Source: Desulfovibrionaceae bacterium
Lineage (GTDB): Bacteria; Desulfobacterota; Desulfovibrionia; Desulfovibrionales; Desulfovibrionaceae
Direction of reading: 5' to 3'
Assembly (NCBI GenBank): GCA_031550525.1
Contig: JAVBON010000026.1
Span: forward strand, 16,704 to 80,703
Length of the DNA stretch: 64,000 nt
In this document: one piece after another, positions 17,196 through 48,619 of the stretch
Position numbering within the stretch: the first letter of the stretch is position 1
Layout of the letters: every line of letters starts with the position of its first letter
Program-made: the position numbers and the translations under genes
The notes under the pieces: model-generated
Told to the model about the DNA's origin: nothing
Seen by the model: the letters and a program-made list of their open reading frames with translations, nothing else
Databases searched by the model: none

Positions 17196-17206
17196 TTACG
17201 CGCCGC

Positions 17207-27605: not shown

Positions 27606-27621
27606 TGGCACTGTATGGGCT
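27606..27621 (+). promoter_or_regulatory. sigma54-type promoter upstream of the ACP/KASIII operon
   Basis: TGGCAC-tgtat-GGGCT. The -24 box is perfect and the GG-N10-GC spacing is exact. The -12 box is weaker (GGC rather than TGC). It lies about 87 nt upstream of the ATG at 27708. Confidence 0.45.
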
Positions 27622-27707
27622 AAGACCCTGCGAAAACGCCGCGTTTTTTCAAGCCGGGCGGTAATATTTCGGGTTTTATATCCGATTAGTTTTTAAACGG
27701 GAAAATT

Positions 27708-27935
27708 ATGGAAGAAAAAATAGCCGCGATTATGTCGCTTATGCTGGGCAAAAACATTGGCGTTGGCGACAAGGTGGAGATGCAAAGCGAGCCTGCCTGG
27801 GACTCTATGAAGCATATAGAGCTGATAATGACGCTGGAGCAGGAGTTGGGCGTGTCGTTTGAGCCGGAGGACATTCCGCTTTTAAAATCCATGGCCCTTA
27901 TTGTGGATAAAACGCGGAGCCTGGCCGGTGAATAA
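27708..27935 (+). CDS. Acyl carrier protein (ACP 1)
   Basis: 75 aa. The phosphopantetheine-site context is AWDSMKHIELIMTLE. Confidence 0.8.
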   Translation: MEEKIAAIMSLMLGKNIGVGDKVEMQSEPAWDSMKHIELIMTLEQELGVSFEPEDIPLLKSMALIVDKTRSLAGE

Positions 27936-28338
27936 CCTGCGCCTGCACCATATAGGCGTGGCTACCAGAGGCATAGCGCGCGAGCTGCCGGGCTTTGAGG
28001 CGCTGGGCTATAAGCCGGACGGGGACTATTTTACCGACCAAACGCAAAAAATACGCGGGCTGTTTATTTCAGCCCCCGGCCAGCCGGTGCTGGAGCTGCT
28101 TGAAAACCTGCACACTTCAGGCCCGTTGGATTCCTGCCTGGCCAAGGGCATAAAATTTTATCACTTCGCTTATGCAACGGACAATATTGAACGCAGCCGC
28201 GACGAACTTGCGGCAAAACACGGGGCCAAGGTTATAGTGCCGGTCACGGCGGCGGAATATTTTAAAAAAGTGTGCTTTCTGATGCTCCCCAATATGATGA
28301 TGATTGAACTGGTGCAGTTGCAAGCCGCAAGCGCATAA
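27928..28338 (+). CDS. VOC/glyoxalase-fold protein (methylmalonyl-CoA epimerase-like)
   Basis: The GTG start at 27928 has GGAG 8 nt upstream and overlaps the ACP stop by 8 nt. LRLHHIGVATRGI...KFYHFAY...MMIELVQ is typical of the VOC superfamily. Confidence 0.65.
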   Translation: MNNLRLHHIGVATRGIARELPGFEALGYKPDGDYFTDQTQKIRGLFISAPGQPVLELLENLHTSGPLDSCLAKGIKFYHFAYATDNIERSRDELAAKHGAKVIVPVTAAEYFKKVCFLMLPNMMMIELVQLQAASA

Positions 28339-28375
28339 GCGCGATAAAGCCCCATTGCTGAACAGGATAGGCCGC

Positions 28376-29455
28376 ATGGCGCAATTTGTTATAAAAAACA
28401 TCCGTCTGGCCGGGTGCGCGGTTGTTACCGGCGAGCAAACCTTGCGGCTGGACGACTTTCCGGAATATTACAACAATGATCCGGCCCTGCTGGCCCGCAT
28501 GAAAAAAACCATCGGCTTCGGGCAACGCCAGGTGGCCGCGCCCGCCACCACCACCTGCGATTTATGCTCCGCCGCCGCCAAACGTCTTATGCGGGCTTTG
28601 AATATAGAGCCGCAACAGCTTGACGCCGTCATATCCGTAACCCAAACGCCGGATTATTACATGCCAGGCAACGCCCATGCGCTGCACGCCGCCCTTGGCC
28701 TGCCCAAAGACGCGGTGGCGCTGGACGTGGAGCTGGGCTGCTCCGGCTACGTGTACGGGCTGTGGCTTAGCGGCATGATGCTCGCCTCCGGCCTGCGCCG
28801 GGTGCTGCTGGTGGCGGGAGACACTTTAAGCAAAGCCGCTGGTCCGCGCGATAGAAGCGTGGCCCCCCTGTTTGGCGATGCCGGCAGCGCCACTATAGTG
28901 GAATTAAACCCGGAAGCGGCAAACACCTACTTTGTGCTGCGCTCCGATGGCACTGGCCTGAAAAAAATGTACATACCCGCCGGTGGCTACCGCGCGCCGT
29001 CCAACCCACAAACTCAAAAAGCCGTGCCGGATGCCGAAGGCAACCTGCGCAGTCCGGAAGATATTTATATGGACGGCTTCGGCATTTTTGAATTCACCAT
29101 GTCCGAACAGCCGGAGCTTTTGCGGCAGGTGTTGGAGTTTTCCGGCAAAGACGTTGCGGATATCGACTACTTCGTCCTGCACCAGGCCAACAGATATATA
29201 GTGGAAACCATTACCAGAAAAGCCAAGATTCCGCCGGAAAAAGCCCCCTCAGACTGCTTTACGCGCTTCGGCAACCAAAACTCCGCCTCCATACCCGGCG
29301 TGCTCTGCGGCAGTTTGGCTCCGGCTCTGGCCGGGCGCAAGGCGCTGGCGGTGCTGCAAGGCTTTGGGGTGGGCCTTTCTTGGGGGGCCTGCCAGTTGGA
29401 GCTGGATGATATAGTGTGCCTCGAGCCAATAGCTTACCAGGGGGCCGTAAAATGA
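28376..29455 (+). CDS. FabH-like 3-oxoacyl-ACP synthase III (KAS III, copy 1)
   Basis: The start is the ATG at 28376. The Cys-His-Asn contexts are ELGCSGYVYG, FVLHQANRYI and FGNQNSASIP. Confidence 0.85.
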   Translation: MAQFVIKNIRLAGCAVVTGEQTLRLDDFPEYYNNDPALLARMKKTIGFGQRQVAAPATTTCDLCSAAAKRLMRALNIEPQQLDAVISVTQTPDYYMPGNAHALHAALGLPKDAVALDVELGCSGYVYGLWLSGMMLASGLRRVLLVAGDTLSKAAGPRDRSVAPLFGDAGSATIVELNPEAANTYFVLRSDGTGLKKMYIPAGGYRAPSNPQTQKAVPDAEGNLRSPEDIYMDGFGIFEFTMSEQPELLRQVLEFSGKDVADIDYFVLHQANRYIVETITRKAKIPPEKAPSDCFTRFGNQNSASIPGVLCGSLAPALAGRKALAVLQGFGVGLSWGACQLELDDIVCLEPIAYQGAVK

Positions 29456-30594
29456 AGTGCTCTTTCTCGGGTGTGGCCGTGCAAGGCATGGTGGCCGTTG
29501 TGCCGCCTGTCCGCATAAATATTGACGATGAAATCGCCTTTTTTGACAACAACCCCAAAAAGCTGGCGCGCGCCAAAAACATGATTGGCTACGGCGCCCG
29601 CCATGTGGTCGATGCTGGCGTGACTGCCGTGGATTTGTGCGAGCAGGCCGCGTTAAAGCTTATAAAAGGCATGGGCCTTGACCCGCAAAGCATTGACGCG
29701 CTGGTGCTGGTAAACCAAAGCCCGGATCATTTCCACCCTGCCGGGGCCTGCATATTGCAGGGCCGCTTGGGGCTTTCCGCCGAATGCGCGGCTTTTGACG
29801 TTGCCATGGGCTGTTCCGGCTATGTTTACGGCCTCTGGCTGGCCCACTCCCTTATCGCCTCCGGCGCGGCGCAAAAACTGCTGTTGCTGGCTGGCGACAC
29901 CCCCAGCATACATACCGACAGGCGCAACCGGCTGGTAAACCCGCTTTTTGGCGATGCGGGCTCCGCCACCCTGCTCACGCGGGCCGATGACGGGCGCAAG
30001 GCCTTTTTTAATCTCGCCACCGACGGCAGGCGCTGGCACAGCATAGCCATGCCCGCCGGGGGCTTTCGCCTGCGGGCCGATGCGGATATTTTAAGCCGTG
30101 AATACGCCGACGAGGCGGGGAATATCTGGAAGCTGACCGACGGCCTTATTGACGGTATGGCGGTTTTTGACTTCAGCACGCATGAAGTGCCGCAAAATAT
30201 ATCCGGCCTGCTGGCTTACGCAGGGCTGAAGACGGATGACATTGACTTTTTCGCCCTGCATCAGGCCAACAAACAAATTGTGCAGGGCATAGGCTTGTCT
30301 CTGGGCCTTTCTGCCGATAAGATCTTTTGGCGGACCTTTGAAAAATACGGCAACCAGTCCACAGCCTCAGTAGCTGGCGCTTTGTGCGACGCGCTGGAAC
30401 AAAGCATGCCCGGCAGCGACTTGAGGCTGCTCTTAAGCGGCTTTGGGGTCGGCCTCTCATGGGGCAGTGCCGTTATTGAAACAAAGCGGGCCTATAACGG
30501 CGGGGTGCAAATTTTAGAGAGCAGCCCGCAAGCGCAAAGCAGAGTAAACATGGTCGAGTTCTGGCAAAATAAATTTCTGAAAAAGGGAATCTGA
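29452..30594 (+). CDS. FabH-like 3-oxoacyl-ACP synthase III (KAS III, copy 2)
   Basis: The start has an ATGA overlap with copy 1. The triad contexts are AMGCSGYVYG, FALHQANKQI and YGNQSTASVA. Confidence 0.85.
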   Translation: MKCSFSGVAVQGMVAVVPPVRINIDDEIAFFDNNPKKLARAKNMIGYGARHVVDAGVTAVDLCEQAALKLIKGMGLDPQSIDALVLVNQSPDHFHPAGACILQGRLGLSAECAAFDVAMGCSGYVYGLWLAHSLIASGAAQKLLLLAGDTPSIHTDRRNRLVNPLFGDAGSATLLTRADDGRKAFFNLATDGRRWHSIAMPAGGFRLRADADILSREYADEAGNIWKLTDGLIDGMAVFDFSTHEVPQNISGLLAYAGLKTDDIDFFALHQANKQIVQGIGLSLGLSADKIFWRTFEKYGNQSTASVAGALCDALEQSMPGSDLRLLLSGFGVGLSWGSAVIETKRAYNGGVQILESSPQAQSRVNMVEFWQNKFLKKGI

Positions 30595-30818
30595 TGAGCA
30601 TAAATGAATTTTTGGAAGAAATGCTGGATGTTTTGCAGCGTGACGACCCCATAAGCGCTGGCATGGCCCTTGCGGATATTGAAGAATGGGACTCCATGGC
30701 CATAATGGGCACGGCGGCTTTTTTGGACCGCCACTTCAACGTGCGCCTCAGCATGAACGACTTTAAAGGGTTTACCACCGTGGCCGACATAGCCAAAGCC
30801 GCGGGCATAAAAGCATGA
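30594..30818 (+). CDS. Acyl carrier protein (ACP 2)
   Basis: 74 aa with the motif IEEWDSMAIMG. The start overlaps the KASIII stop (TGATG). Confidence 0.8.
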   Translation: MSINEFLEEMLDVLQRDDPISAGMALADIEEWDSMAIMGTAAFLDRHFNVRLSMNDFKGFTTVADIAKAAGIKA

Positions 30819-31558
30819 TCCGCTTCACCCCCGAAGACGTGCTGCTGGTAACCGGCGCATCCTCCGGCTTTGGGGCCGCATCCGCCCTGCTGCTCAACAG
30901 CCTTGGGGCAACGGTTATTGCCGCCGCCCGCGATCAGGAGCGCCTTAAGGCCGTGGCCGCGCAAAGCGCCAACCCGCAAAATTTTCATTGCCATACCAAA
31001 GATCTGGCCCAAGACGCCGACAGCCTTGGCGATTGGGTTAAAGAGCTTAAAAACGCCCACGGCAAACTGCGCGGCCTTTTACACTGCGCCGGAATATGCG
31101 GCATAACGCCGGTGCGCCTGCAAGAAAGCCAAGGCCTGCGCCAGATGTTGGACGTAAACCTGGTGGCGGGCTATCAACTTGGCCGCGCCTTTCTTGACCG
31201 GCGCAACAACATAGGCGCTGGGGCCTCCATGGTTTTCATCGCATCCACCGGCGCTTTCAGCGGCAATGCGGGCATATCGGCCTACGCCGCTTCCAAGGGC
31301 GCGGTTTTTTCCATGTCCAGAGCCATGGCCTGCGAGTTCGCGCCGCAGGGCATTCGCGTAAACTGCATCTCTCCAGCTTTTATACTCACGCCCATGACCG
31401 AAACCCTGCATGAGCATTACCCGGACTGGGCCGATTACCCACTGGGGCCCGGCAGCCCGCAAGACGTGGCCCAAGCCGCCGCCTGGCTGCTTTCCGGCGC
31501 TTCGCGCTGGGTTACGGGCCAAAACATAGTGCTGGACGGCGGGAATAGCCTGAAATGA
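30815..31558 (+). CDS. Short-chain dehydrogenase/reductase (FabG-like ketoreductase)
   Basis: Contains TGASSGFG, SAYAASKGA (YxxxK) and an ATGA overlap with ACP 2. Confidence 0.85.
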   Translation: MIRFTPEDVLLVTGASSGFGAASALLLNSLGATVIAAARDQERLKAVAAQSANPQNFHCHTKDLAQDADSLGDWVKELKNAHGKLRGLLHCAGICGITPVRLQESQGLRQMLDVNLVAGYQLGRAFLDRRNNIGAGASMVFIASTGAFSGNAGISAYAASKGAVFSMSRAMACEFAPQGIRVNCISPAFILTPMTETLHEHYPDWADYPLGPGSPQDVAQAAAWLLSGASRWVTGQNIVLDGGNSLK

Positions 31559-33327
31559 CCCCGCTGTTTCAGGATGCCCCCACACGGGCGGACCTGCTGG
31601 CCCTGCCGCTGCCGGAAAACCTCCGGCACATAACCATTGCGGTGCACCGTAACCATGCCTTTGAGCTGGCCGCTTCGGCCTTAAACCCCTTTCTGGCCCT
31701 TTCCGGCCTGCAAGCCGATTTCTGGTACAGCGATTATGACGACAGCCTGAGCTTCGCCCATATGCCGCCCAAGGCCGATATTCACATTATCTGGGTGGAC
31801 GCGGCCAAATACCGAATGGAAAATTTCGCGGCATGGCTGAGCGGGCGGGCGCAGGCCCTGCGCGAGGCCGGAGTTGCTGAATTGGAGGCCGGCGCGGACA
31901 AATCCGGAATCTACACGGATAATGCCAATATTGCCGAGGGTATCTTCAAGGTTGAGGCGGGTAATGCGTATATTGGCCCAGACCAGTCCAAATCTGTTGC
32001 GCTTAATCCGGCCAATGGCCTGAACAGGCCCAAAACAGGCGCAAATAGAATAATAGTGGCCTGTACCGGCACATCTGGCCTTACGCCAGAACTGCCCGCC
32101 ACTTCAGCTATCACACTCAAACTGCCTGACCAAACCCTGTTTCTGGATGTGGACGCCGCAACCGCGCACTTGGGCGGGCAGGCTTTTTCCGAGCGCCTGC
32201 AAGCGCTGGCAGGCACACGCCTTTCCAACTCCGCGCTACTCTTGGCGGCCCGCGAGCTGGGCTGCCGCTATATCCCCGCCCTGCTCCTCACTCCGCTCAA
32301 AGCGCTGGTGCTGGATTTGGACAACACCCTTTACGACGGCGTGCTGGGCGAAGACGGCATACAGGGCGTAACCCCGCGCCAAGCCGTGCAAAAACGCCTC
32401 AAAGAACTGGCCGGGCAAGGCTTTATGCTGGCTTTGGCCTCTAAAAATGAAGAAGACGACGTTAAAAGGCTGTTTGCCGAGCGCGCTGATTTTGCCCTGC
32501 GTTGGGAGGATTTTTCAGCCGCCCGCATAAACTGGCGGCCCAAGCCTGAAAATATCGCCGAGATTGCGCGGGATTTAAACATAGGGTTGGACGCCATGCT
32601 CTTTGTGGACGACAACCCTGGCGAAGCCCTGCGCGCCGCCGTTGAACTGCCTGAATTGCACGTTGCCGAAGCCCCCTCGGCGGAAGTTGCCTTAAACATC
32701 CTGCGCTTTTACCCCGGCCTGATGAAAACATCCTTTACGGCGGAGGACGCCCTGCGCGGGGCCGACGCGCGGGCCAATGCCGCCCGGCGCGAGCTTGGAG
32801 CAGGCCTAAGCGCTGAGGAGTATGTAGCGGCCCTGCAAATTGAAATGGATTTTGCCGTAAACAAGCTGGAACAACTGCCCCGCGTGACGGAACTGCTGAA
32901 CAAAACCAACCAGTTTATTCTGTCTTTCAAAAGGCCTGACCCCGCCGAAGCTGCAAAATACATGGCGGAGCCAAACCGTTGCGTGGTCACGGCTGCCATG
33001 CGCGACAAGCTTTCGGATAGCGGCATAATCGCCGTGCTGCTGGCCCGCCAAAACGGCGATATGTATGTTGACGAGCTTGCCGTAAGCTGCCGGGCGCTGG
33101 GCCGGGGCGTGGAAAACGGCATGCTCGCCCAAATGTTGCGCCTGGCGGCTGAACATTTGGGGAACAAAGGCAAAATTTTTGTGTGCCATAAAACAGGCCC
33201 GCGCAACAAACCGGCCCTGGATTGGCTGGCAAGCTGCGTGGCCGTGCCGCAGAAAGATAACTTGGCGCTGCTTCCAGCCTTGCCTGCGGCGGAGCTTGCG
33301 GGAGTAAAAACAAGGCTGTTGGGTTAG
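31555..33327 (+). CDS. FkbH-like HAD-IIIC family protein
   Basis: 590 aa with an ATGA overlap with the SDR gene. Contains the HAD motif LVLDLDNTLYDGVLGEDG, ASKNEEDDV and FVDDNP. The C-terminal GNAT-like segment is VDELAVSCRALGRGVE. Confidence 0.8.
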   Translation: MTPLFQDAPTRADLLALPLPENLRHITIAVHRNHAFELAASALNPFLALSGLQADFWYSDYDDSLSFAHMPPKADIHIIWVDAAKYRMENFAAWLSGRAQALREAGVAELEAGADKSGIYTDNANIAEGIFKVEAGNAYIGPDQSKSVALNPANGLNRPKTGANRIIVACTGTSGLTPELPATSAITLKLPDQTLFLDVDAATAHLGGQAFSERLQALAGTRLSNSALLLAARELGCRYIPALLLTPLKALVLDLDNTLYDGVLGEDGIQGVTPRQAVQKRLKELAGQGFMLALASKNEEDDVKRLFAERADFALRWEDFSAARINWRPKPENIAEIARDLNIGLDAMLFVDDNPGEALRAAVELPELHVAEAPSAEVALNILRFYPGLMKTSFTAEDALRGADARANAARRELGAGLSAEEYVAALQIEMDFAVNKLEQLPRVTELLNKTNQFILSFKRPDPAEAAKYMAEPNRCVVTAAMRDKLSDSGIIAVLLARQNGDMYVDELAVSCRALGRGVENGMLAQMLRLAAEHLGNKGKIFVCHKTGPRNKPALDWLASCVAVPQKDNLALLPALPAAELAGVKTRLLG

Positions 33328-33363
33328 ATCTGGTGGAAGAATATGGAAAAGGCGCCGCGTGCC

Positions 33364-33512
33364 AGGTTGTGTCTACATTCAGAGTGATTTTGCGCTCTGG
33401 CAGGGAAGCAAGGCTTTTAACCGAAAGAGTATACTCTTACGGTATTCGACTGAGGGGCAAAGCTTTGCAGACGCAGCCAGAGGGCAAAAGCGTCTGAATG
33501 TCGACACAACCT
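33364..33512 (+). mobile_element. 149-bp MITE-like element with ~20-bp terminal inverted repeats, copy A
   Basis: The ends are AGGTTGTGTCTACATTCAGA ... TCTGAATGTCGACACAACCT and the central palindrome is AAGAGTATACTCTT. It is about 90 percent identical by eye to 48620-48768. Confidence 0.8.
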
Positions 33513-33583
33513 GAGGCAGATTTATAAAATCTTGGCTGCGCCCAACCCCGCAATATGGCGGTAAACCGCCTTGACCTTGCAAC
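33513..33583 (-). repeat. Short-form intergenic repeat, reverse orientation, diverged copy abutting the MITE
   Basis: GAGGCAGATTTATAAAATCTTGGCTGCGCCCAACCCCGCAA...CCTTGACCTTGCAAC matches the reverse complement of the 71-bp family. Confidence 0.6.
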
Positions 33584-33628
33584 TGTCATAATCCGCGCTG
33601 CCTTGATTACACGGGTAAAGGATTTGCC

Positions 33629-34285
33629 ATGAGCGATAATACAACCAAATCAATAGTCATAGTCGGCAACTCCGGCTTTGCCCGCGAGTGCTACGCCATG
33701 CTGCGCGCCGTTATGCGGCGCGAGCCCGCGTTATCCGTAAAAGGTTTTTTAAGCTTTGAAGGTTACAAAGGCGACCTGAAAGAGCTTTCCGGCCTGCTGC
33801 TGGGCACTGACGACGAATACGCCCACCAGCCAGGCGAGTATGCCGTTATTGGCATAGGCGACCCGCACCTGCGCCGCAAGGCCTACCTTAAGCTAAGAGC
33901 CAGGGGCGTGCCCTTTTTCACCCTTATCCACCCCAACGCTTATGTGGATGAGGCCACCAGCGTGGGCGAAGGCTGCATTTTCGGCAGCAAGTGCTACATT
34001 AACTGCAACTGCGCCATCGGCCCCGGCAACCTCTTTAACGGGCTGGTACACATGGGCCACGACTGCACGGTGGGCGAGTGCAACTTTTTCGGCCCCAACG
34101 TGCAGATTTTGGGCGGAGTAAACATGGGCGGCTGCAACTCCGTTGGCGCTACCAGCGTTATTATGCCCGCCGCCCGCATTGGCAGCGGCAATATAATAGC
34201 CCCCTTGAGCGCCGTATACAAAGGCTGCCGCGACAACACCTATATGTCAGGCAACCCGGCGGTGAAAGTGGGAACGCGGGAATAG
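33629..34285 (+). CDS. NeuD/PglD-family left-handed beta-helix sugar N/O-acyltransferase
   Basis: The N-terminal Rossmann-like segment is IVIVGNSGFARECYAML. Hexapeptide repeats follow (VGEGCIFG, IGPGNLFNG, VGECNFFG, IGSGNII). Confidence 0.8.
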   Translation: MSDNTTKSIVIVGNSGFARECYAMLRAVMRREPALSVKGFLSFEGYKGDLKELSGLLLGTDDEYAHQPGEYAVIGIGDPHLRRKAYLKLRARGVPFFTLIHPNAYVDEATSVGEGCIFGSKCYINCNCAIGPGNLFNGLVHMGHDCTVGECNFFGPNVQILGGVNMGGCNSVGATSVIMPAARIGSGNIIAPLSAVYKGCRDNTYMSGNPAVKVGTRE

Positions 34286-34332: not shown

Positions 34333-35955
34333 TTATTCAAGCACGGCCCATACCGGCGCGCCCAGCGCAACATGGGCGTATTTATGCTCGAGATTTTTGA
34401 CCAGCGACGGCAAATAGCATTTTCTGGTGAAGACTATTACCGGTTTTGCGTCATCCGCAGTTAGGTCTTTGGGGTGGATAACCGGAATACCCTCCACTTG
34501 CGCGGGGTAGCCGGGCATATCTATTAAAAAGGCCACAGGTTTGGCGGCGGCGAACAGCCCCGCGAATTTTTTGTAAGAAGCGCCACAGCCCCAGAAGTAT
34601 ACTTCCTTTCCGGCCAGAGCGGCGGCTTTTTCCCGCAGGATTCGCCGATGATGCTCGCCGTAAAGCTCCCAAAACAATTCGTACAGCCTCAGGGAAAGTT
34701 TCAAACCTGACGCGGCGGCGAGAAAGGCTTCAAAATCCGCCTCCGGCAAGAGCGGCCTCAGGTAAAGCAGCATGCTGCGCTTATACAGCTCCTGCCCCTG
34801 GGCGTTATCTTCAAGCACAAAGGGGTATTGGTCCTTGAGCGGGTCAAAGGCCATGCCCTGGTACAAAAAATGACGCGGCGCCGGCAGCAGATGCGGCTCG
34901 CCGGCAAGGGGCAGAGCCGCCGCCGATCTCAAGGCCGCCTTGAAATCATCGTCACTGTCAACCTTGAATACATAGGGGTCGCCGTCAGCGAAGCTCAAGG
35001 GCACGTCTATGCCTTTTAGGTGCGACAAGGCGGCGTCATCTTCCACCAAATCCTCGCGGTAGTTGGATGGATACCAGCGCTCGGCAAAGGTCTCTATCTC
35101 AGCCGTGCTAAAACGCTTGTCCAGCACGGTTATATCCGTATCCATATTGCGCAGTTTCTTGTCTTTAAAAAGTTTCAGCAGGCCGGTGCTGAAAAGCTCG
35201 CTGGTATCGCCAAGGCGCTGGCGTTGCATGGGCAGGCACATGCCGCAGTGCGCGCACAGCTTTGACGCCTGCGCCTGAAACTCGTGCGGGGCGCGCCGCC
35301 ACCAGCCGGGCTCCACGGGCCATGCGTTGGCTCCGTCATGCAGGAGGCGGTCAATGGCCGCGCCCACCTCGCAAAAATATGCGCCGTTTATGTTTACGGT
35401 AGGGCTCCAGATGCGCTGCACCCAGCAGTTGTTTATGAGCTTCCATTTAAGGGCCTCATCCTGCACGGCGTCGCCCACGGCCAGGGTAAGCGGGTGGTGG
35501 CTGCACACCTCCTGCTGCGCCGCATCATGCGCGTTGTAGCGGATGGTGCGGTAAGTTCTGGTCATGTCGCAATCGCCCTCCGGCCACTCGCTCCAGGCAT
35601 ATTCCGGCACCCAGCTATATTTGGAATCCACCGCTGGTTTTGAGGCGATGGCGCGTTTTTTCATGCCCGGCAGGCCAGAGGTGAAAATATTCAGCTTTTC
35701 CTGCGGCAGGTGCCTGCGCAAAAGAGCGTTAACCTCGGCGAATTGCGGATGCATAAGAGGCTCGCCGCCTATTATGCTGACCATGGAGGGCCAGTCTTTA
35801 TACGCAATAATGGCGGCTTCTATTTTATCAAGGGGCATGTGCCTGCGCTGGTCCGTACGCAAATGCCGCGTATAGCGCGTGCAGTATATGCAGGTATTGG
35901 GGCATACCGACGTAATGTCGATGAGCGCGCTCCACGTTTTATGCATGTAATCCAT
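34333..35955 (-). CDS. Radical SAM enzyme with an extra Cys cluster and a ~200-aa C-terminal extension
   Basis: The radical SAM cluster is CPNTCIYC at residues 18-25, followed by IIGGEPLMH. A later CAHCGMC suggests an auxiliary cluster. I cannot assign the C-terminal domain (KEVYFWGCGASYKKF...). Confidence 0.75.
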   Translation of the reverse strand: MDYMHKTWSALIDITSVCPNTCIYCTRYTRHLRTDQRRHMPLDKIEAAIIAYKDWPSMVSIIGGEPLMHPQFAEVNALLRRHLPQEKLNIFTSGLPGMKKRAIASKPAVDSKYSWVPEYAWSEWPEGDCDMTRTYRTIRYNAHDAAQQEVCSHHPLTLAVGDAVQDEALKWKLINNCWVQRIWSPTVNINGAYFCEVGAAIDRLLHDGANAWPVEPGWWRRAPHEFQAQASKLCAHCGMCLPMQRQRLGDTSELFSTGLLKLFKDKKLRNMDTDITVLDKRFSTAEIETFAERWYPSNYREDLVEDDAALSHLKGIDVPLSFADGDPYVFKVDSDDDFKAALRSAAALPLAGEPHLLPAPRHFLYQGMAFDPLKDQYPFVLEDNAQGQELYKRSMLLYLRPLLPEADFEAFLAAASGLKLSLRLYELFWELYGEHHRRILREKAAALAGKEVYFWGCGASYKKFAGLFAAAKPVAFLIDMPGYPAQVEGIPVIHPKDLTADDAKPVIVFTRKCYLPSLVKNLEHKYAHVALGAPVWAVLE

Positions 35956-35988: not shown

Positions 35989-36996
35989 CTATTCGTACAG
36001 GTTAACCGCTTCCGGCCTGCTTGCGCCGCGCAACAGGCGCGAGGACCGCACTATTTTCTCGGCGTTTATGCGGTTGCCCAGCAGCAGCACTTTTATAAGG
36101 GTGGCCGCATCGGTAAACTCCAGCAAAGAAGCCACTGTGGCGTCTGATATGGCGTCGCCCTCCTCTTTGCCCACGGCCACGCTGAGCCTGCCGGTGCAGA
36201 GGCTGAGGTAGTGCTCCAAAAACCAGCCGTAATCAGCGGCCAAGGCCTCGTCAAAACCTTTGGCGCGCACGTACGGCACAAGCTCCTCACGGATAAAATA
36301 GGTGTATACGGCCCGCTCCACCGTATCGGCACGGTCCTTCTCCCACCAGTAGTAGCCGTAGCCCACCAGATCGCTGCCCACGTATTTTTTGGCATTCATC
36401 AAAAAGAGCGCGGTCAGGTACAAATCTTCCACAAAGCGCAACACCTTGCTGGAATGGGCGGTTTCGCACACCGAAAGGCACAGGTCTTTGGAATAGAGCT
36501 TGTTCCACAACACGGTGCCGTGAATGTCCGTTTTGAGGTATTTGGTAAAAATATCGCGCCCTTCAAGTATTTCCGCAAAGGGGTCGCCCATATGAAAATA
36601 GCGCTTGAAATTGCCTATATTGTCTGTGAAGGCAGCGCGAAAATGCAGCACATCCGCCCCTGCTTCGTCAAACATGGCTACATGCCGGGCCAGAGTATCG
36701 TCACCTTTAAGGGTGTCGTCGGCATCGGCAAAGGCTATTATGCGGCCGGCAGCGCCCTCAATGCCCAAAAGCCTTGCCTCTTTGGTGTACACGCGCCGGT
36801 TGTTGTACAAGGCCCGCACGTTAAGCCCCTTGGCGCGGTAAGCGTCCAGCAGGTCGCCGCAGCTTTCTTCCGAGCAGTCATCTACCACCACAACTTCCAA
36901 ATCAACGCCCCGCTGCGCCAAAATGCTGTCAAACAGCACCGGCAGGCAATGCTTGTGGTTATGGTTGGGCACTATTATGGAAATTGTCGGCTGCAT
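35989..36996 (-). CDS. Glycosyltransferase family 2
   Basis: ISIIVPNHNHKHCLPVLFDSILAQ...VVVVDDCSEE...FADADD. Confidence 0.85.
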   Translation of the reverse strand: MQPTISIIVPNHNHKHCLPVLFDSILAQRGVDLEVVVVDDCSEESCGDLLDAYRAKGLNVRALYNNRRVYTKEARLLGIEGAAGRIIAFADADDTLKGDDTLARHVAMFDEAGADVLHFRAAFTDNIGNFKRYFHMGDPFAEILEGRDIFTKYLKTDIHGTVLWNKLYSKDLCLSVCETAHSSKVLRFVEDLYLTALFLMNAKKYVGSDLVGYGYYWWEKDRADTVERAVYTYFIREELVPYVRAKGFDEALAADYGWFLEHYLSLCTGRLSVAVGKEEGDAISDATVASLLEFTDAATLIKVLLLGNRINAEKIVRSSRLLRGASRPEAVNLYE

Positions 36997-37047
36997 TTTT
37001 CCTCCTGGTTATTGCTGGCAAGTAGCGGGCATAGCCATTGCCGCGCG

Positions 37048-39315
37048 TCAGTTACCGTTATTTGCGGAATCTGGCAGCATGGCCATAATATAATCAATAT
37101 TGACCTTTTCATGCTCGGCTATGCGCGGTAGCGCTATACGCGCAAAATCGGGGCATGTAAGCGCCGCCTTTTCTACCAGCTTGAAATCATTATGTGTTTT
37201 TGCATAATTAATCAGATCTCCAAAAACACTAAAACTTTTAGGCCCTAATATGGAAAAATAACGTCCGCCAAGGCGCCTGTTAACCGTGTTATAGCAAATC
37301 AATTCATCCAGGCCCCATTTGGCCCTATGCGCGGTCATATCCACATGCGTGCCGTAAAAAAGAGAGTCTTTATGCCTCCTGTATACGCTCATCGGCTCGT
37401 TAATAAAGCCTATTTTTCCAATTTCGGCATGCAAAATATGCCAGTACCAGTCGCCTGGCGTTAAATCCGGCACAAACCAATCCGGCAAACCGTCTTTAAA
37501 ACGCCAGCGGTACATTACGGAACCTGTCTGCATCATGTTCAGCCGCAGTAAATCCGTAAGATAATAAAACTGGCGCACCCCGCGCCGCAAATAGTTTTCT
37601 GAAGGGTAGTACTCTTCGTGCTCCGGCGTATCTTCAAACAATACCTTGGCAACATGAAAGCACACGGTACAATCCTGATGCTTGTCCAAAAAATCCGCCT
37701 GTTTTTGCAGCTTATGATCGTCAATAAAATAATCATCGCCGTCAAGCAACGCTACATAAGGGCTGTTGGCCCGGTTGAACATTTCCCAAATGCCTTCGCC
37801 TTCAAACAGCCATGGGTGGTGTATGTATGTTATCGAACCGGGGTGTTGCTTCGCGTATCCTTCAACAAGGCCTCTAATGCCGTCGCTTGCACCGGCATCC
37901 ATAATAAGATGGCGCACGGGAAAATCTGTTTTTTGAGCCAGCACGCTTTCAATATTATCCGCAATAAACTTCTCATGGTTGGCGGTAAGCGTACATACTG
38001 TGACCTTGTAGTCTTCAGCCGGAGTATCTCCAACCGCCACGCGGGCAAAATTTTCTCCAGCCGCGCGTTCCATGGCCTGTTTAAGCACAGCCATATCCGG
38101 TTTAAGCATGCATGAGGGAAACCGGCGTAACATTTCCAGCAAAAGAGCCGCAAAACCGTCTGGCAAACTTTTTACCGCCCTGGCCGCATCGTCAAAGCTC
38201 AAATCGCCGTACTGAGGCAGCAGGTCGCTTGCGGATAATTGCGGGAAGTCCGCCTTGCGGCCCGTTATTATTTCCACCTGCCTTATAAACGGCATGTATT
38301 TTTTGATAATATCATGGCGGAGATTGGCGCTTAATAATGAATGACGTTGCGGCTCACGCGCAAAAACCGTCATACATTCCATAATCGCCGGGTATAGCGC
38401 CGAAAATTCCCCATACCCGCGTTGCATATGCATATCGGCATATAAAGGCGAGCCATGCATGCCAAGCATAAGCATACTATAATACAGGTTCTGGATTGCA
38501 TTAATAAAAAACAGCAGCGCTGGCGGCAGCTTAAAATCAACCGGCCCGGCAGGGGGAATATGCTCGCCGGTATCTACCCACGCAGGCATAATGGACGCGT
38601 GCTCACATATCTTTCCGGCCAAAGCGCCGCCAAAGTCCGGCTCGCCATTATCAACCAGCACCTCAAGGCCCGCCAGGCCCCGCCCTTGCAGGCTATGCAG
38701 ATAAAGCAATCCGGCAAGCGGATTCACCGGCTCGTCCTTTAGCGAGCTGCTAATTAAAAGACCCGGAGTTTCAAGAAGTTGACGGTAGGTAACTGGCGTA
38801 TGAGCCACGGCTTTTGACAACACGCCGTACTCAAGCAGAGACTCCATCTCTATATCAGGCCGGGCGCAAGCCCATAAAAAAGACTGACCCGCATTGGGGC
38901 AAACAGCGCGGGTTTGTTCGTATACATGTTTGATATAGTCGGGAAAATAACCGTAAAACGGCCAGAACAAACACACGCGGCTATCATTGCCGGTGCTTGT
39001 TTCGCGCTTGGCGGCAAGCCAGTCAAAATTCTGCTGGCTATATGCCGCCGGTACGGGCAGTATTCCGCTGAAGACCAGCTTTGTTGGGGAATCCGGGGCG
39101 ATATCAAACATGCCGTGCGCAGCAATAAGGCCGTGTGACTGAATAAAATCGCGGTTTAAAGTCAAAACCCCGTCGGCAGCAAAAATATGCCTGAAATTGC
39201 CCAATACATGTACTATTTTTCCAATTCCCATATTATACACCCCGGCCCAATATGCATGCCAATACCCAATAAAACCCGGAGCCATGCCATAACCGCGCAT
39301 ATCTTGTTTAAGCAA
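37048..39315 (-). CDS. Two-domain protein: ~430-aa N-terminal domain of unknown function plus a C-terminal GT2 glycosyltransferase
   Basis: The GT2 part is VTVCTLTANHEKFIADNIESVLAQ...LLDGDDYF. The start is uncertain: the track TTG is at 39315, an ATG is at 39300, and no clear RBS is visible. Confidence 0.7.
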   Translation of the reverse strand: MLKQDMRGYGMAPGFIGYWHAYWAGVYNMGIGKIVHVLGNFRHIFAADGVLTLNRDFIQSHGLIAAHGMFDIAPDSPTKLVFSGILPVPAAYSQQNFDWLAAKRETSTGNDSRVCLFWPFYGYFPDYIKHVYEQTRAVCPNAGQSFLWACARPDIEMESLLEYGVLSKAVAHTPVTYRQLLETPGLLISSSLKDEPVNPLAGLLYLHSLQGRGLAGLEVLVDNGEPDFGGALAGKICEHASIMPAWVDTGEHIPPAGPVDFKLPPALLFFINAIQNLYYSMLMLGMHGSPLYADMHMQRGYGEFSALYPAIMECMTVFAREPQRHSLLSANLRHDIIKKYMPFIRQVEIITGRKADFPQLSASDLLPQYGDLSFDDAARAVKSLPDGFAALLLEMLRRFPSCMLKPDMAVLKQAMERAAGENFARVAVGDTPAEDYKVTVCTLTANHEKFIADNIESVLAQKTDFPVRHLIMDAGASDGIRGLVEGYAKQHPGSITYIHHPWLFEGEGIWEMFNRANSPYVALLDGDDYFIDDHKLQKQADFLDKHQDCTVCFHVAKVLFEDTPEHEEYYPSENYLRRGVRQFYYLTDLLRLNMMQTGSVMYRWRFKDGLPDWFVPDLTPGDWYWHILHAEIGKIGFINEPMSVYRRHKDSLFYGTHVDMTAHRAKWGLDELICYNTVNRRLGGRYFSILGPKSFSVFGDLINYAKTHNDFKLVEKAALTCPDFARIALPRIAEHEKVNIDYIMAMLPDSANNGN

Positions 39316-39583: not shown

Positions 39584-40846
39584 ATGTACGATAAAGATTT
39601 TTATGATGAAAATCACAAGTACTCCATCAATTCCGCAAAAGAGGTAATCGCATATATCGAAAAAATATTGCCCGGAATCGCCACTGTTGCCGATATAGGA
39701 TGCGGCATGGGCGCATGGCTGAATGAATGGAAAAAGCATGGCAAAAAAGTTTACGGTTTCGATAACAATGAAATGCCGGATAATGACTGGTTGCTGGAGC
39801 GCAGGGAGTTCACGAAGTATGACCTCGCTCAGCCGCTGCCCTTGCCGGATGCCAAATTCGACCTGTGCATGTCTCTGGAGGTTGCGGAACACTTGGATGC
39901 AACCCATGCCGACACATTTATAAGAAGCATATGCCAATATAGCGATCTTGTGCTGTTTAGCGCCGCTATTCCGGGGCAAACCGGAATAAACCACGTTAAT
40001 GAGCAGTGGCCGCAGTATTGGGTTAAAAAATTTATGGCCAACGGGTTTTATGCCTATGATATTCTACGGCTGCCGTTTTGGAATAACCATGGCGTGGCCT
40101 GGTGGTATTCACAGAATATGCTGATTTTTGCCCGTGAAAACAGTAAATATGCCACTATGCTGAATGAGAAACATGAAAGGAAGGAATATATTTTTCCACT
40201 TGTGCATCCAAAGTGCCTGTATATGTATAGAGAAATGTATGAAGAAGCGTTAAATACAAGCCACAATATGGAAATTCCATCAGATTTAAAAGCATATGAG
40301 CGAATACATTACGTTGAACAGACAAAAATACCTACCCACCTTACGGATAAAGAAAAATTTATACTATACGCTCTTGCCGGCTCGGCAGCATCAAACGGTA
40401 AAATAAATTTTGTCGAGCTCGGCTCATATCTTGGCGCGTCTTCCATATGCATAGCTTCAGCCCTTACGGGCAAGGCCCGGCTTTATTGCGTTGACACCTG
40501 GCAAAATGAAGGAATGCGGGAAGGCCTGCGCGATACATACAGTGAATTTATAACCAATATAGATATGTTATCGCGAACGATTACTCCCTTACGCGGTAAA
40601 AGCGCTGAAGTGGCGCGCACTTTTAACAACAATGTGGATTTCTTGTTTATTGACGCAGATCATAATTATGAAGGGATTATGGCCGATCTGAACGCATGGT
40701 GGCCAAAACTTCTACCTGGGGCAATAGTGCTCATGCACGATGTAGGCTGGGCCGAAGGCCTGAAAAAAGCGCTTGACGATTTTGTCCGCCCCCGTACACA
40801 CTCGCATGGCCGTTTGCCAAATATGTTTTGGGGAGTCGTGAAGTAA
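39584..40846 (+). CDS. Fusion of two class I SAM-dependent methyltransferase domains
   Basis: The N-terminal domain has VADIGCGMGAWL...LCMSLEVAEHL. The C-terminal domain has FVELGSYLGASS...FLFIDADHNYEG (Methyltransf_24/CmcI-like). Confidence 0.75.
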   Translation: MYDKDFYDENHKYSINSAKEVIAYIEKILPGIATVADIGCGMGAWLNEWKKHGKKVYGFDNNEMPDNDWLLERREFTKYDLAQPLPLPDAKFDLCMSLEVAEHLDATHADTFIRSICQYSDLVLFSAAIPGQTGINHVNEQWPQYWVKKFMANGFYAYDILRLPFWNNHGVAWWYSQNMLIFARENSKYATMLNEKHERKEYIFPLVHPKCLYMYREMYEEALNTSHNMEIPSDLKAYERIHYVEQTKIPTHLTDKEKFILYALAGSAASNGKINFVELGSYLGASSICIASALTGKARLYCVDTWQNEGMREGLRDTYSEFITNIDMLSRTITPLRGKSAEVARTFNNNVDFLFIDADHNYEGIMADLNAWWPKLLPGAIVLMHDVGWAEGLKKALDDFVRPRTHSHGRLPNMFWGVVK

Positions 40847-48343: not shown

Positions 48344-48619
48344 CGCTTCGTACTCCCGCTCAACGGGTTGAAGCCGCAATATAGAGAACGTCCCGGCTTG
48401 TTCAGCCGGGACGTTACGGGCAGCCCGAGGCCTGACTGCCGTTTGCCATTGGCGGCTGGGGCTTTCGCCTTACATGTCCGCAAGGTCAGCATTGCTCTGC
48501 CGGAATCCATCAGCCTTACGGCGCCCGGAATGGAAACCGGCGGCAATTTAAACCGCATACCGCGCAACACAGAACAGTTAAAATATATTCCGGCCTACAT
48601 GCGATTAAACAGCACGGCT

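Follow-up and report, generated by a model that had tools for sequence, protein, structure and literature searches.

The window analyzed here, a stretch of 64 kb, contains seven closely spaced genes for two carrier proteins (ACP1 and ACP2), a VOC-fold protein, two KASIII-type proteins (KAS1 and KAS2), a ketoreductase (KR) and an FkbH-like protein, followed by the gene of an LbH acyltransferase. What does this block produce? The first-pass annotation had offered two answers: an ACP-borne acyl group of glyceryl or hydroxyacyl origin with which the enzyme encoded at 33629-34285 would N-acylate an amino sugar, or a small tetronate/butenolide-like metabolite. The observed gene content, catalytic residues, modular make-up, synteny and linkage to amino-sugar genes point to the first. 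Probably, the seven coupled genes and LbH form one pathway for a short, hydroxyl-rich acyl group, made on dedicated carrier proteins and borne as an amide by an amino sugar in a surface glycoconjugate. Most likely, the block is not a tetronate antibiotic pathway.

The genes are arranged in the order ACP1, VOC, KAS1, KAS2, ACP2, KR and FkbH-like, with LbH as the eighth gene (Table 1). All eight proteins have intact domains and catalytic residues. The seven genes described in the first-pass annotation lie where it had placed them, and family profile matches were found for them. It had regarded all seven as chained by overlapping stops and starts. Read directly from the sequence, this is correct for five of the six junctions. 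The GTG of VOC at 27928 lies in the stop context of ACP1 with an 8-nt overlap (TAA ending at 27935), and the remaining overlaps were all read as annotated, namely ATGA at 29452-29455 (KAS1/KAS2), TGATG at 30592-30596 (KAS2/ACP2), ATGA at 30815-30818 (ACP2/KR) and ATGA at 31555-31558 (KR/FkbH-like). The claim fails for VOC and KAS1, where a 37-nt spacer separates the VOC stop (28336-28338) from the KAS1 ATG at 28376, a start also supported by independent public gene calls and by the N-termini of homologues. Overlapping starts and stops are an ordinary operon feature; the block stands above chance because unrelated contigs share its eight-gene order, with identities of 48-67%. Between FkbH-like and LbH there is a gap of 301 nt containing a palindromic element with a predicted RNA fold of -82 kcal/mol (z = -7.6). 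Due to this gap and the strong hairpin, co-transcription of LbH with FkbH-like in this organism is uncertain.

Table 1. Features of the gene block and the surrounding island, with positions in the window.
Feature	Position	Strand	Characteristics
ACP1	27708..27935	+	75 aa; Ser33 in WDSM; FkbH-module carrier protein; PP-binding weak, 17.5 bits
VOC-fold protein	27928..28338	+	136 aa; GTG start; Glyoxalase_4, 49.5 bits
KAS1	28376..29455	+	359 aa; KASIII-type; Pfam ACP_syn_III and ACP_syn_III_C
KAS2	29452..30594	+	380 aa; second KASIII-type; 39% identical to KAS1
ACP2	30594..30818	+	74 aa; Ser34 in WDSM; PP-binding 25.1 bits, above cut-off
SDR ketoreductase, FabG-like	30815..31558	+	247 aa; adh_short_C2, 150 bits, and KR domain
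FkbH-like protein	31555..33327	+	590 aa; TIGR01686, 287.7 bits (cut-off 146.65)
Palindromic element, copy 1	33363..33513		about 150 nt; intergenic, FkbH-LbH; 21-nt arms, 95% complementary
LbH N-acyltransferase, NeuD/PglD/VioB/PerB type	33629..34285	+	218 aa; catalytic His144
Radical SAM protein, two-domain	34333..35955	-	540 aa; Radical_SAM matches residues 14-96 only
GT2a glycosyltransferase	35989..36996	-	Glycos_transf_2; conserved LbH partner
Large GT2-domain protein	37048..39315	-	755 aa; GT2 domain 439-567
Two-methyltransferase-domain protein	39584..40846	+	Methyltransf_24 and Methyltransf_11/25
GT2 glycosyltransferase	41040..42275	+	
Putative methyltransferase	42719..43633	+	weak matches only
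DegT/DnrJ/EryC1 sugar aminotransferase	43615..44760	+	PF01041, 402.7 bits
SAM-dependent methyltransferase	44763..45539	+	
Protein	45636..46745	+	369 aa; faint WsaF_C hint only
O-methyltransferase, FlxJ-family-like	47089..48168	+	Methyltransf_2 and Dimerisation2
Palindromic element, copy 2	48619..48770		about 90% identical to copy 1, same orientation

The FkbH-like protein, a putative glyceryl loader, consists of an N-terminal domain, a HAD-IIIC phosphatase domain and a C-terminal GNAT-fold domain. The DLDNT HAD motif reported before was located at residues 254-258, with D254, D256 and T258 invariant, and Cys512 of the GNAT-fold domain (SCRALGR) is likewise invariant. An insertion at approximately residues 113-168 is window-specific and predicted to be disordered. 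The solved structure 3SLR (BF1531) matches the protein both by sequence and by fold, and aminoglycoside acetyltransferases were obtained as GNAT-fold matches of the structural model (pLDDT 84.7). The WDSM serine site is present in both carrier proteins, as previously noted, and is kept in at least 90% of the homologues of each (38 for ACP1 and 13 for ACP2). ACP1-type genes adjoin FkbH in most related loci; ACP2, which serves the KAS/KR module, always adjoins KAS/KR genes. The VOC protein resembles glyoxalase I and methylmalonyl-CoA epimerase. Its nearest solved relatives are 2QH0 and 3HDP, deposited as lactoylglutathione lyase/glyoxalase I, and residues H7/H8, E56 and H79 are conserved. Forty-six VOC ORFs were found among FkbH-centred loci, whereas none of the 41 KAS-centred loci contains one. 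Fusions of VOC to FkbH (P0119) and to GNAT (L037) were observed, and a DegT-GNAT fusion adjoins FkbH in L082. The module of FkbH, ACP1 and VOC is widespread and commonly has an N-acyltransferase and a DegT aminotransferase as neighbors. The module matches cj1299-cj1304 of Campylobacter jejuni, whose host makes di-O-methylglyceroyl-pseudaminic acid (PMC7099621). Unlike strain 11168, strains with a cj1302 (FkbH) pseudogene or without the "epimerase" cj1301 are devoid of dimethylglyceroyl-pseudaminic acid (PMC7099621).

KAS1 reached 161 bits on the fabH model TIGR00747, under the cut-off of 292, and its nearest solved relative is 4EFI. The phylogenetic tree placed KAS1 in a clade that is nearly always FkbH-linked; KAS2 belongs to a separate old clade shared with the FkbH-less loci L084, L086, L132 and L142. 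The motifs GCSGY, HQAN and GNQ of both proteins align with C112, H244 and N274 of E. coli FabH, in agreement with the Cys/His/Asn contexts of the first-pass annotation. In the ketoreductase, the catalytic residues Ser144, Tyr157 and Lys161 are conserved. The genes for KAS, ACP2, KR and LbH co-occur, often together with DegT, and a KR was found in 38 of the 41 KAS-centred metagenome loci. It had been remarked earlier that two KASIII proteins are more than a 3-hydroxybutyryl group needs. This is correct, but the arrangement is not unusual, as two or more KAS genes are present in 22 of these 41 loci. The module of KAS, KAS, ACP2, KR and LbH matches N-acyl-sugar loci of Pseudomonas syringae and Flavobacterium psychrophilum. 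In P. syringae, vioA, vioS, acp, vioR and vioB lead to N-(3-hydroxybutanoyl)-2-O-methylviosamine on flagellin, as backed by mutants (PMC3927599). The sugar of F. psychrophilum is N-(3,5-dihydroxyhexanoyl)-Qui2NAc4N, and a set which likewise comprises two KAS, an ACP, a KR and a PglD homologue was assigned to its 3,5-dihydroxyhexanoyl group (PMC6519341).

LbH passes the Pfam cut-offs for PglD_N and Hexapep and scored 137 bits on the NeuD/PglB/VioB model TIGR03570, below the cut-off of 160.8. Its nearest solved relatives are the 4-amino-sugar N-acetyltransferases PerB, VioB, PglB and PglD. The catalytic His144 is kept in at least 90% of 10 homologues and aligns with the PerB residue altered in a deposited variant. 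Homologues with 54-64% identity directly follow FkbH in L010, L083, L167 and L168; LbH is thus a conserved partner of the cassette. The DegT aminotransferase of the island is LegC/PseC-like (LegC-family model, 320 bits; PseC, 247 bits; each under its cut-off), and a DegT gene adjoins the cassette in L087, L093 and L167. Furthermore, both halves of the cassette are tied to known N-acyl sugars (PMC3927599, PMC6519341, PMC7099621). These results support the N-acylation of an amino sugar by LbH with an ACP-borne acyl group.

The block was compared with approximately 170 related loci. It is composed of two modules, FkbH with ACP1 and VOC, and KAS, KAS, ACP2 and KR with LbH. Both also occur independently, in most genomes. 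At least 10 hybrid loci contain both modules together with a dedicated acyltransferase, within the block or next to it (counted were L003, L005, L009, L010, L083, L085, L087, L093, L104, L158, L167 and L168, L003 being credited with a GNAT through near-identity to L085). The neighborhood is conserved, since L167 and L168 keep the eight-gene order, to which L167 adds GT2a and a radical SAM gene. The order FkbH-KAS-ACP2-KR-LbH recurs in L104 and L158, from an independent KAS clade. L085 combines one amino-sugar route (FdtA and DegT), both modules and one GNAT. No amino-sugar acyltransferase was found within or next to L151, whose weak FkbH match is about 6 kb away from the KAS genes, or L109, a short contig; all other hybrid loci have one. 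Hybrid loci long enough to judge are set among DegT or glycosyltransferase genes. L084 shows the order VOC-KAS1-KAS2-ACP2-KR-LbH, with FkbH absent within 10 kb, which counts against a single pathway.

Do the two modules act on the same acyl chain? C. jejuni likewise has a KAS (cj1303-like, in a basal clade different from that of the window KAS) and a second ACP beside FkbH, and despite these genes its glyceroyl derivative is unextended (PMC3068675, PMC7099621). Consequently, glyceryl extension is not a necessary result of such gene content. This favors two independent acyl donors, glyceryl-ACP1 and, separately, an ACP2-bound chain, for two amino groups or two sugars. FkbH, ACP1 and VOC would then provide an N-glyceroyl group, as in Pse5Am7Gra or the dimethylglyceroyl sugar of C. 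jejuni, and KAS1, KAS2, ACP2 and KR would form 3-hydroxybutanoyl- or 3,5-dihydroxyhexanoyl-ACP2 from acetyl-CoA. Each module stands alone in most genomes and has its own ACP type, and di-N-acylated sugars (bacillosamine, nonulosonic acids) are common targets, to which the LegC/PseC-like DegT would be suited. However, two donors should keep two transferases. The window contains a single dedicated N-acyltransferase, tblastn across the 64 kb revealed no GNAT N-acyltransferase, and none of the hybrid loci examined has both an LbH-type and a GNAT-type enzyme. Moreover, the KAS/ACP2/KR module is nested within the FkbH/ACP1/VOC module and translationally coupled to it, and the window lacks the methyltransferase found alongside the FkbH module in 20 loci where this module stands alone. 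Two separate donors are therefore unlikely. From the nesting, the coupling and the hybrid loci with a single transferase type we infer that the two modules are integrated and not merely adjacent.

The tetronate or butenolide proposed in the first-pass annotation is disfavored and, in our view, very improbable. An RkD/Tmn15/Mad16-type KAS would have to join a 3-ketoacyl thioester, made by the other KAS and ACP2, to glyceryl-ACP1, yielding a 3-acyl-5-hydroxymethyl-tetronate. The tetronate "glycerate-utilisation operon" is indeed built around FkbH, an ACP and a FabH-like enzyme (PMC7489565), both partners could in principle be provided by two KAS and two ACPs, and both KAS keep the catalytic triad. 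Nevertheless, orthologues of KAS1/KAS2 also occur where FkbH is missing (L084, L086 and most of the 41 metagenome loci), the window contains no Agg4-like acyltransferase, Agg5-like dehydratase, PKS or metabolite-cluster regulator or exporter, and the linkage of the hybrid loci to acyltransferase, DegT and glycosyltransferase genes argues against such a product. An unusual extender such as hydroxymalonyl- or methoxymalonyl-ACP, or a lipid building block such as a hydroxy fatty acid of membrane lipids or lipid A, made by a cassette unrelated to the adjacent glycosylation genes, is hardly credible: methoxymalonyl-ACP synthesis does begin with FkbH and an ACP (PMC7489565), and an O-methyltransferase and a GT9 heptosyltransferase occur in the wider region, but the FkbK- and FkbI-type dehydrogenases defining that route are absent, as are a dehydratase or enoyl reductase for fatty-acid elongation, and LbH, GT2a and DegT are syntenic with the cassette across loci.

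For the favored single pathway to an N-acylated amino sugar we infer substrates, products, order of steps and link between the modules as follows. The FkbH-like protein would take a phosphorylated C3 acid from glycolysis, by analogy with characterized FkbH enzymes 1,3-bisphosphoglycerate. Its HAD domain would strip the phosphate, and Cys512 of the GNAT-fold domain would hold the glyceryl unit and hand it to ACP1. VOC may act on the 2-hydroxyacyl thioester; an epimerization at C2 via an enediolate is a guess. KAS1 would then join the glyceryl unit to malonyl-ACP2, followed by reduction of the 3-keto group by the SDR, and KAS2 and the SDR may perform a second round. The chain on ACP2 would be a C5 (3,4,5-trihydroxypentanoyl) or a C7 (3,5,6,7-tetrahydroxyheptanoyl) group. 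Amides of a trihydroxypentanoyl or tetrahydroxyheptanoyl group are not known to have been reported from glycans. The PglD/VioB-type LbH would move this chain onto the amino group of a nucleotide-linked sugar provided by DegT, the keto precursor of which may derive from the twitch radical SAM enzyme and not from a 4,6-dehydratase. Finally, the sugar would be transferred by GT2a and other glycosyltransferases and perhaps O-methylated by methyltransferases.

Genes for a sugar 4,6-dehydratase, a flippase, flagellin or Maf were not found in the 64-kb window. The N-terminal domain of the radical SAM protein is of the twitch type and resembles sugar or cyclitol dehydrogenases; domain searches left the function of the C-terminal domain unassigned. 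The top fold matches of its model (pLDDT 87.9) are SpeY and BtrN. The family is small (46 hits), with CX3CX2C and four more Cys conserved, and the homologue in L167, directly after LbH-GT2a, is 40% identical over 538 of 540 residues. GT2a homologues directly follow LbH in L010 and L167 (51-52% identical), and L168 has one at 39%. Domain and homology searches gave no informative match for the N-terminal 430 residues of the large GT2-domain protein. The FlxJ-family-like O-methyltransferase scored 399 bits on NF053543, below the cut-off of 560. Copy 2 of the palindromic element lies at the far edge of the island. The best named homologues come from Desulfovibrio or Desulfovibrionaceae, which is consistent with the earlier label "sulfate-reducer-like" but does not prove it. 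A selenocysteine formate dehydrogenase is encoded upstream and also fits this label.

The acyl cassette consists of seven genes sharing one strand between positions 27708 and 33327, followed by a gene for an acyltransferase with a left-handed beta-helix (LbH). The first-pass annotation had assigned these ORFs to protein families by inspection, and domain searches of the cassette with Pfam and NCBIfam bore out the assignments. The start and stop coordinates of all seven genes are identical in independent public gene calls. Five of the stop-start overlaps described before were again read from the sequence, but the chain is not continuous, as the VOC and KAS1 genes are separated by a 37-nt spacer. 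A gap of 301 nt, which holds a palindromic element of ~150 nt, lies between the FkbH and LbH genes. Upstream of the cassette a selenocysteine formate dehydrogenase is encoded, followed by its Fe-S subunit and FdhE. The TGA which splits the formate dehydrogenase ORF is a selenocysteine codon and not a frameshift.

Coordinates of the acyl cassette and of neighbouring features in the window
Feature	Position	Strand	Remarks
Formate dehydrogenase catalytic subunit	22273-25311	+	In-frame TGA at 22852-22854 within HQARV-U-HGPTV
4Fe-4S subunit of formate dehydrogenase	25322-25966		
FdhE	26299-27156		
ACP1	27708-27935	+	75 aa
VOC / glyoxalase-fold protein	27928-28338	+	136 aa, GTG start
KAS1	28376-29455	+	359 aa
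KAS2	29452-30594	+	380 aa
ACP2	30594-30818	+	74 aa
SDR ketoreductase (KR)	30815-31558	+	247 aa
FkbH-like protein	31555-33327	+	590 aa
Palindromic element, copy 1	33363-33513		
LbH acyltransferase	33629-34285		NeuD/PglD/VioB type, left-handed beta-helix
Radical SAM protein	34333-35955	-	540 aa; small uncharacterised family, 46 hits
GT2 glycosyltransferase (GT2a)	35989-36996	-	
DegT aminotransferase	43615-44760	+	LegC/PseC-like
O-methyltransferase	47089-48168	+	FlxJ-like
Palindromic element, copy 2	48619-48770		

The FkbH-like protein scored 287.7 bits with the FkbH model TIGR01686 (cut-off 146.65) and 74 bits with the HAD-IIIC model TIGR01681 (cut-off 35.75). Its predicted structure (pLDDT 84.7) revealed three domains: an N-terminal domain found also in B. 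fragilis BF1531 (3SLR), a HAD region which aligns with the phosphatase domain of the same protein, and a GNAT-fold C-terminal domain. The DLDNT motif reported earlier is intact. D254, D256, T258, S296, K330, D352 and D353, which include the DxDxT signature, are invariant among 19 FkbH sequences. Also invariant is Cys512 in the sequence SCRALGR of the C-terminal domain, which by analogy with OzmB is presumably the acyl-enzyme site. A dedicated ACP adjoins FkbH here and in most related loci. By analogy with characterised FkbH enzymes, the protein would be a putative 1,3-bisphosphoglycerate-using enzyme that loads an ACP. Residues ~113-168 form an insertion of ~55 residues which none of the 18 aligned homologues has; it is probably disordered according to the model, where residues 116-160 have a pLDDT below 50.

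The Cys, His and Asn residues of both condensing enzymes align with C112, H244 and N274 of E. coli FabH, in agreement with the catalytic contexts recognized before. The E. coli sequence served only for numbering and as outgroup. KAS1 and KAS2 are 39% identical. They scored 161 and 170 bits with TIGR00747 (cut-off 292), 200 and 206 bits with NF006829 (cut-off 249), and 264 and 251 bits with the best model, PRK12880 (cut-off 436). Thus, both remained below the cut-off of every curated housekeeping FabH model tried, and in the tree a long branch sets them off from E. coli FabH, which marks them as distinct from housekeeping FabH. Their nearest solved relatives are 4EFI and 3GWA, two uncharacterised proteins deposited as 3-oxoacyl-ACP synthases.

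The WDSM serine site noted in the first-pass annotation is present in both carrier proteins, and the serine of ACP2, Ser34, is conserved. The ketoreductase carries Ser144, Tyr157 and Lys161. LbH matches PglD_N and Hexapep, and its best solved relatives are PerB, VioB (among them 7TXP, deposited as VioB), PglB and PglD. The conserved His144 of LbH aligns with the residue altered in a deposited PerB variant. Among solved structures, 2QH0 and 3HDP, which were deposited as glyoxalase I, are nearest to the VOC protein, and its relation to methylmalonyl-CoA epimerase is weaker. Glyoxalase I and the epimerase both shift a proton at the carbon beside the carbonyl of a thioester, which makes a putative role of the VOC protein as glyceryl-S-ACP 2-epimerase, proposed by analogy, chemically sensible.

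The genomic context was compared in 80 genome loci around FkbH homologues, taken from a species-representative genome collection (best match D. cuneatus, 54%; the genome of the window itself is not included), in 80 metagenome loci around KAS homologues, and in ten annotated contigs. Members of this FkbH family occur most commonly in the context FkbH-ACP1-GNAT-VOC, in many cases with a methyltransferase and DegT behind it. GNAT was found in 36 and the methyltransferase in 20 of the 80 FkbH genome loci. The VOC gene goes together with FkbH, with 46 occurrences in FkbH-centred loci versus none in the 41 KAS-centred metagenome loci of at least 8 kb to which the KAS-module counts refer. Fusions were seen between FkbH and VOC (homologue P0119), GNAT and VOC (locus L037), and DegT and GNAT (locus L082). 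The combination of KAS, ACP2, KR and LbH is widespread without FkbH; DegT frequently accompanies it, and many of these loci have two KAS genes. KR was present in 38, at least two KAS genes in 22, LbH in 17 and FkbH in only 4 of the 41 KAS-centred loci; L084 and L086 are annotated examples of FkbH-free KAS-module loci. We interpret the block in the window as a fusion of a glyceroyl-donor module (FkbH, ACP1, VOC) and a hydroxyacyl module (KAS1, KAS2, ACP2, KR, LbH).

At least 14 loci are hybrids of both modules (L003, L005, L009, L010, L083, L085, L087, L093, L104, L109, L151, L158, L167 and L168). An acyltransferase, either LbH or GNAT, lies in or beside the block in 12 of these 14, the GNAT of L003 being assigned through near-identity to L085; in none were both types detected. 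No acyltransferase was detected in L109, which is a short contig, or in L151, where a weak FkbH match lies ~6 kb off the KAS genes. L168 keeps the eight-gene order of the window at 48-67% identity. In L167 the genes run on one strand in the order DegT-ACP1-VOC-KAS1-KAS2-ACP2-KR-FkbH-LbH-GT2a-radical SAM; GT2a is 52% and the radical SAM protein, over its full length, 40% identical to the window protein. DegT adjoins the cassette in L087, L093 and L167. The gene neighbourhood proposed before as a check is conserved, the eight-gene order recurring in L167 and L168. The cassette is not unique to the window: Desulfovibrionaceae-like organisms, Campylobacterota, Gastranaerophilales and metagenomes together contribute at least 12 similar loci. 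In the tree KAS1 and KAS2 belong to two old, distinct clades. The KAS1 clade is nearly always linked to FkbH (exception L084), and the KAS proteins of Campylobacter and Helicobacter form a separate basal clade.

The cassette probably makes an ACP-borne hydroxyacyl group for the N-acylation of an amino sugar. Transfer by the enzyme encoded at 33629-34285, one of two outcomes considered in the first-pass annotation, is supported by its LbH family and His144, by the DegT and GT2 genes and by synteny. Extension of the glyceryl unit is a more tentative proposal, which we place slightly below even confidence. Glyceryl-ACP1 would prime the chain, KAS1 and KR would extend it once with malonyl-ACP2 and reduce it, KAS2 and KR would perform a second such round, and LbH would move the chain onto the amino sugar supplied by DegT. 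The hydroxyacyl module is nested in the glyceroyl-donor module, with translational coupling between the two; LbH and GNAT were never detected together in a hybrid locus; an independent KAS lineage also has the set FkbH-KAS-ACP-KR-LbH; and the KAS1 clade is bound to FkbH. These observations argue for cooperation of the modules on one chain, the main rival explanation being that they provide two independent acyl donors.

The two-donor explanation is kept alive by Campylobacter, where the product is not chain-extended. The loci L022 and L034 from this genus contain ACP, a gap, VOC, FkbH, KAS and ACP, with 30-44% identity to the window proteins. We take acpP2, fabH2 and acpP3 to be the gene names in the annotation of cj1299-cj1304 of C. 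jejuni, and cj1298 and cj1300 presumably encode a GNAT and a methyltransferase; the window has LbH instead. Unlike the window, cj1299-cj1304 comprise a single KAS of the basal clade and no ketoreductase. No experimental assignment of these genes was found in the literature searched. C. jejuni NCTC 11168 makes 2,3-di-O-methylglyceroyl-pseudaminic acid, and cj1295 is the only gene experimentally tied to the dimethylglyceroyl group (PMC3068675). In C. jejuni strains in which cj1302 (FkbH) is a pseudogene or the 'epimerase' cj1301 is missing, the glyceroyl-derived glycan is missing as well (PMC7099621).

If the two modules act on one chain, the product might be an undescribed decoration, namely a glycerate-primed, reduced polyhydroxyacyl amide on an amino sugar which receives its amine from a twitch radical SAM enzyme and DegT and not via a 4,6-dehydratase. 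We regard this full reading as rather unlikely. The acyl group, extended once or twice, would for example be 3,4,5-trihydroxypentanoyl or 3,5,6,7-tetrahydroxyheptanoyl, possibly O-methylated. FkbH would then load the starter unit in a dedicated type II fatty-acid-like pathway that serves surface glycans. The acyl group of Treponema denticola, 2-methoxy-4,5,6-trihydroxyhexanoyl (PMC13439194), was also considered as a product and was rejected, since we reason that its carbon pattern fits 3-deoxyhexonic acid better than glyceryl-plus-malonyl.

Among described systems, the O-polysaccharide genes wfpC, wfpD, wfpE, wfpF and wfpG of F. psychrophilum encode two different KAS, an ACP, a KR and a PglD homologue. 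They adjoin pglE and pglF and were assigned to the 3,5-dihydroxyhexanoyl amide on Qui2NAc4N; the product is structurally defined, whereas the gene functions are predicted only (PMC6519341). By description wfpC-G are the same gene set as KAS1, KAS2, ACP2, KR and LbH of the window and stand beside an aminotransferase. Unlike for the window, FkbH, a second ACP and VOC do not appear in that description. The wfp gene order, KAS, ACP, KAS, KR, LbH, DegT, was also found in the metagenome locus L110. The viosamine island of P. syringae pv. tabaci (vioA, vioM, vioT, vioS, vioB, vioR, acp) makes N-(3-hydroxybutanoyl)-2-O-methyl-viosamine on flagellin, as supported by mutants, and has homologues in the flagellin glycosylation island of P. 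aeruginosa PAK (PMC3927599). It shares with the window a DegT-type aminotransferase, KASIII, ACP, ketoreductase, VioB-type LbH, methyltransferase and glycosyltransferase. In contrast to the window it has a single KAS, a single ACP, and no FkbH, VOC or radical SAM gene; its target flagellin is known, whereas the window is devoid of flagellar genes. The cassette is an FkbH-primed version of such ACP-dependent amino-sugar acylation cassettes, a version whose members are uncharacterised.

A different FkbH-free arrangement was observed in L086 (ENA ERZ28615591 scaffold_1, 6332-20180), a run of 16 genes in the order DegT, KAS, ACP, KR, LbH, KAS, radical SAM-SPASM, FabA-like, KR, split transketolase, ACP, AMP-binding enzyme, LuxE, LuxC and GT2. 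This run resembles the flagellin glycosylation island of P. aeruginosa PAK. Here, a hydroxyacyl starter of two carbons may be loaded instead by the split transketolase and ACP.

The second outcome of the first-pass annotation, a tetronate or butenolide, is unlikely. The 'glycerate-utilisation operon' of tetronate pathways contains FkbH-like, ACP, FabH-like, Agg4-like and Agg5-like genes, of which the FabH-like ring-forming enzyme is needed and the Agg4- and Agg5-like ones are usual (PMC7489565). The window shares with it the FkbH-like loader, a stand-alone ACP and a FabH-like enzyme, which in the operon acts on glyceryl-ACP. However, Pfam and NCBIfam searches of all large window ORFs revealed neither an Agg4-like acyltransferase nor an Agg5-like dehydratase, and a PKS or another cluster supplying a 3-ketoacyl donor was not found either. 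Orthologues of the window KAS enzymes occur also in FkbH-free loci, unlike in the tetronate operon; with such members in their clades, neither KAS1 nor KAS2 looks like a dedicated tetronate synthase. Furthermore, the hybrid loci long enough to judge sit among DegT or glycosyltransferase genes. The methoxymalonyl route (FkbG, H, I, J, K) needs two dehydrogenases (PMC7489565), and neither the 3-hydroxyacyl-CoA-dehydrogenase-like nor the acyl-CoA-dehydrogenase-like enzyme is present in the cassette or the island.

The stand-alone FkbH-ACP-GNAT-VOC(-methyltransferase)-DegT module is found in many phyla and shares with the window the FkbH, ACP1 and VOC families and the link to DegT. The GNAT and the methyltransferase that accompany FkbH elsewhere were not found in the window, which has KAS, ACP2, KR and LbH instead. 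The compact form with the methyltransferase was observed in L014, L016, L017, L023, L026, L038, L039, L049, L059, L063 and others, from hosts among the Nitrospirota, Verrucomicrobiota, Alphaproteobacteria, Betaproteobacteria and Paenibacillus and a MAG labelled Klebsiella. This module probably underlies N-glyceroyl or O-methylglyceroyl amino sugars in general; we found no paper describing it. Nor did the literature on FkbH or glyceryl-ACP with polysaccharides and flagellin glycosylation yield an assignment of FkbH-type genes to the acylation of glycans. The genetic basis of the N-glyceroyl group on the pseudaminic acid of Tannerella has been called 'a major challenge' (PMC5378307). N-acyl groups on amino sugars and nonulosonic acids affect antigenicity, phage recognition and immune evasion, and their genetic basis is mostly unknown. 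The loci offer testable assignments: FkbH, ACP, VOC and an N-acyltransferase would form the glyceroyl-donor module, and KAS, ACP, KR and LbH the hydroxyacyl module. In hybrids such as the window locus, a C3 unit from glycolysis would enter a small assembly line of the fatty-acid type. With this assignment, FkbH chemistry would reach beyond actinomycete polyketides to the surface glycans of anaerobes, gut bacteria and Campylobacterota, and glycan structures would be easier to predict from genomes.

Downstream of LbH the minus strand encodes, in order, the radical SAM protein, GT2a and a 755-aa GT2-domain protein. The plus strand continues with a double methyltransferase, a GT2, a putative methyltransferase, the DegT aminotransferase, a methyltransferase, an unassigned protein and the O-methyltransferase; the island thus holds three GT2 genes. 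The O-methyltransferase matched the NCBIfam 'FlxJ family methyltransferase' with 399 bits, under the cut-off of 560. All large ORFs of the 64-kb window were scanned, and none was found to encode a flagellin, a Maf protein, a nonulosonic-acid synthase, a 4,6-dehydratase, a flippase or an ABC exporter. Against solved structures, the 755-aa protein gave spurious sequence matches only and the radical SAM protein gave none.

The radical SAM family shows a CX3CX2C motif and four further conserved cysteines. The N-terminal half was predicted with confidence (pLDDT 87.9), and its fold is similar to that of SpeY and BtrN, which are sugar and cyclitol dehydrogenases of the twitch radical SAM type (Foldseek E ~1e-6 and 3e-3; TM-score ~0.5 on the target). 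The C-terminal ~240 residues occur also in proteins of ~595 aa, one of them labelled a glycosyltransferase in its source. Besides the small family, true homologues were found only in L167, L168 (partial) and L170; the radical SAM proteins of L084 and L086 were compared and rejected as orthologues. In L167 and L170 the gene co-occurs with DegT/KAS/ACP/KR/LbH/GT2 sets. BtrN and the DegT-family aminotransferase BtrS convert a hydroxyl group to an amine in 2-deoxystreptamine synthesis. By annotation, the radical SAM-containing loci (window, L167, L170) are without a 4,6-dehydratase, and L085 shows the reverse, with FdtA and an RmlB-like gene and no radical SAM gene. This distribution weakly suggests that the radical SAM protein and DegT install the amino group here.

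The two palindromic copies are imperfect, ~90% identical and in the same orientation, and flank the stretch from LbH through the O-methyltransferase (33.6-48.2 kb). The predicted RNA fold of the element has an energy of -82 kcal/mol (z = -7.6). An Rfam scan of 27-49.5 kb gave no match, so the copies belong to no known RNA family; a MITE- or REP-like repeat is conceivable, as is a scar left by recombination. The GT2a-radical SAM pair, located beside copy 1, is inverted in the window relative to L167. The G+C content drops to 0.45-0.51 over 36001-42000, the glycosyltransferase and methyltransferase part, compared with 0.57-0.58 in the acyl cassette and ~0.55 in the flanks, which suggests a mosaic origin of the island.
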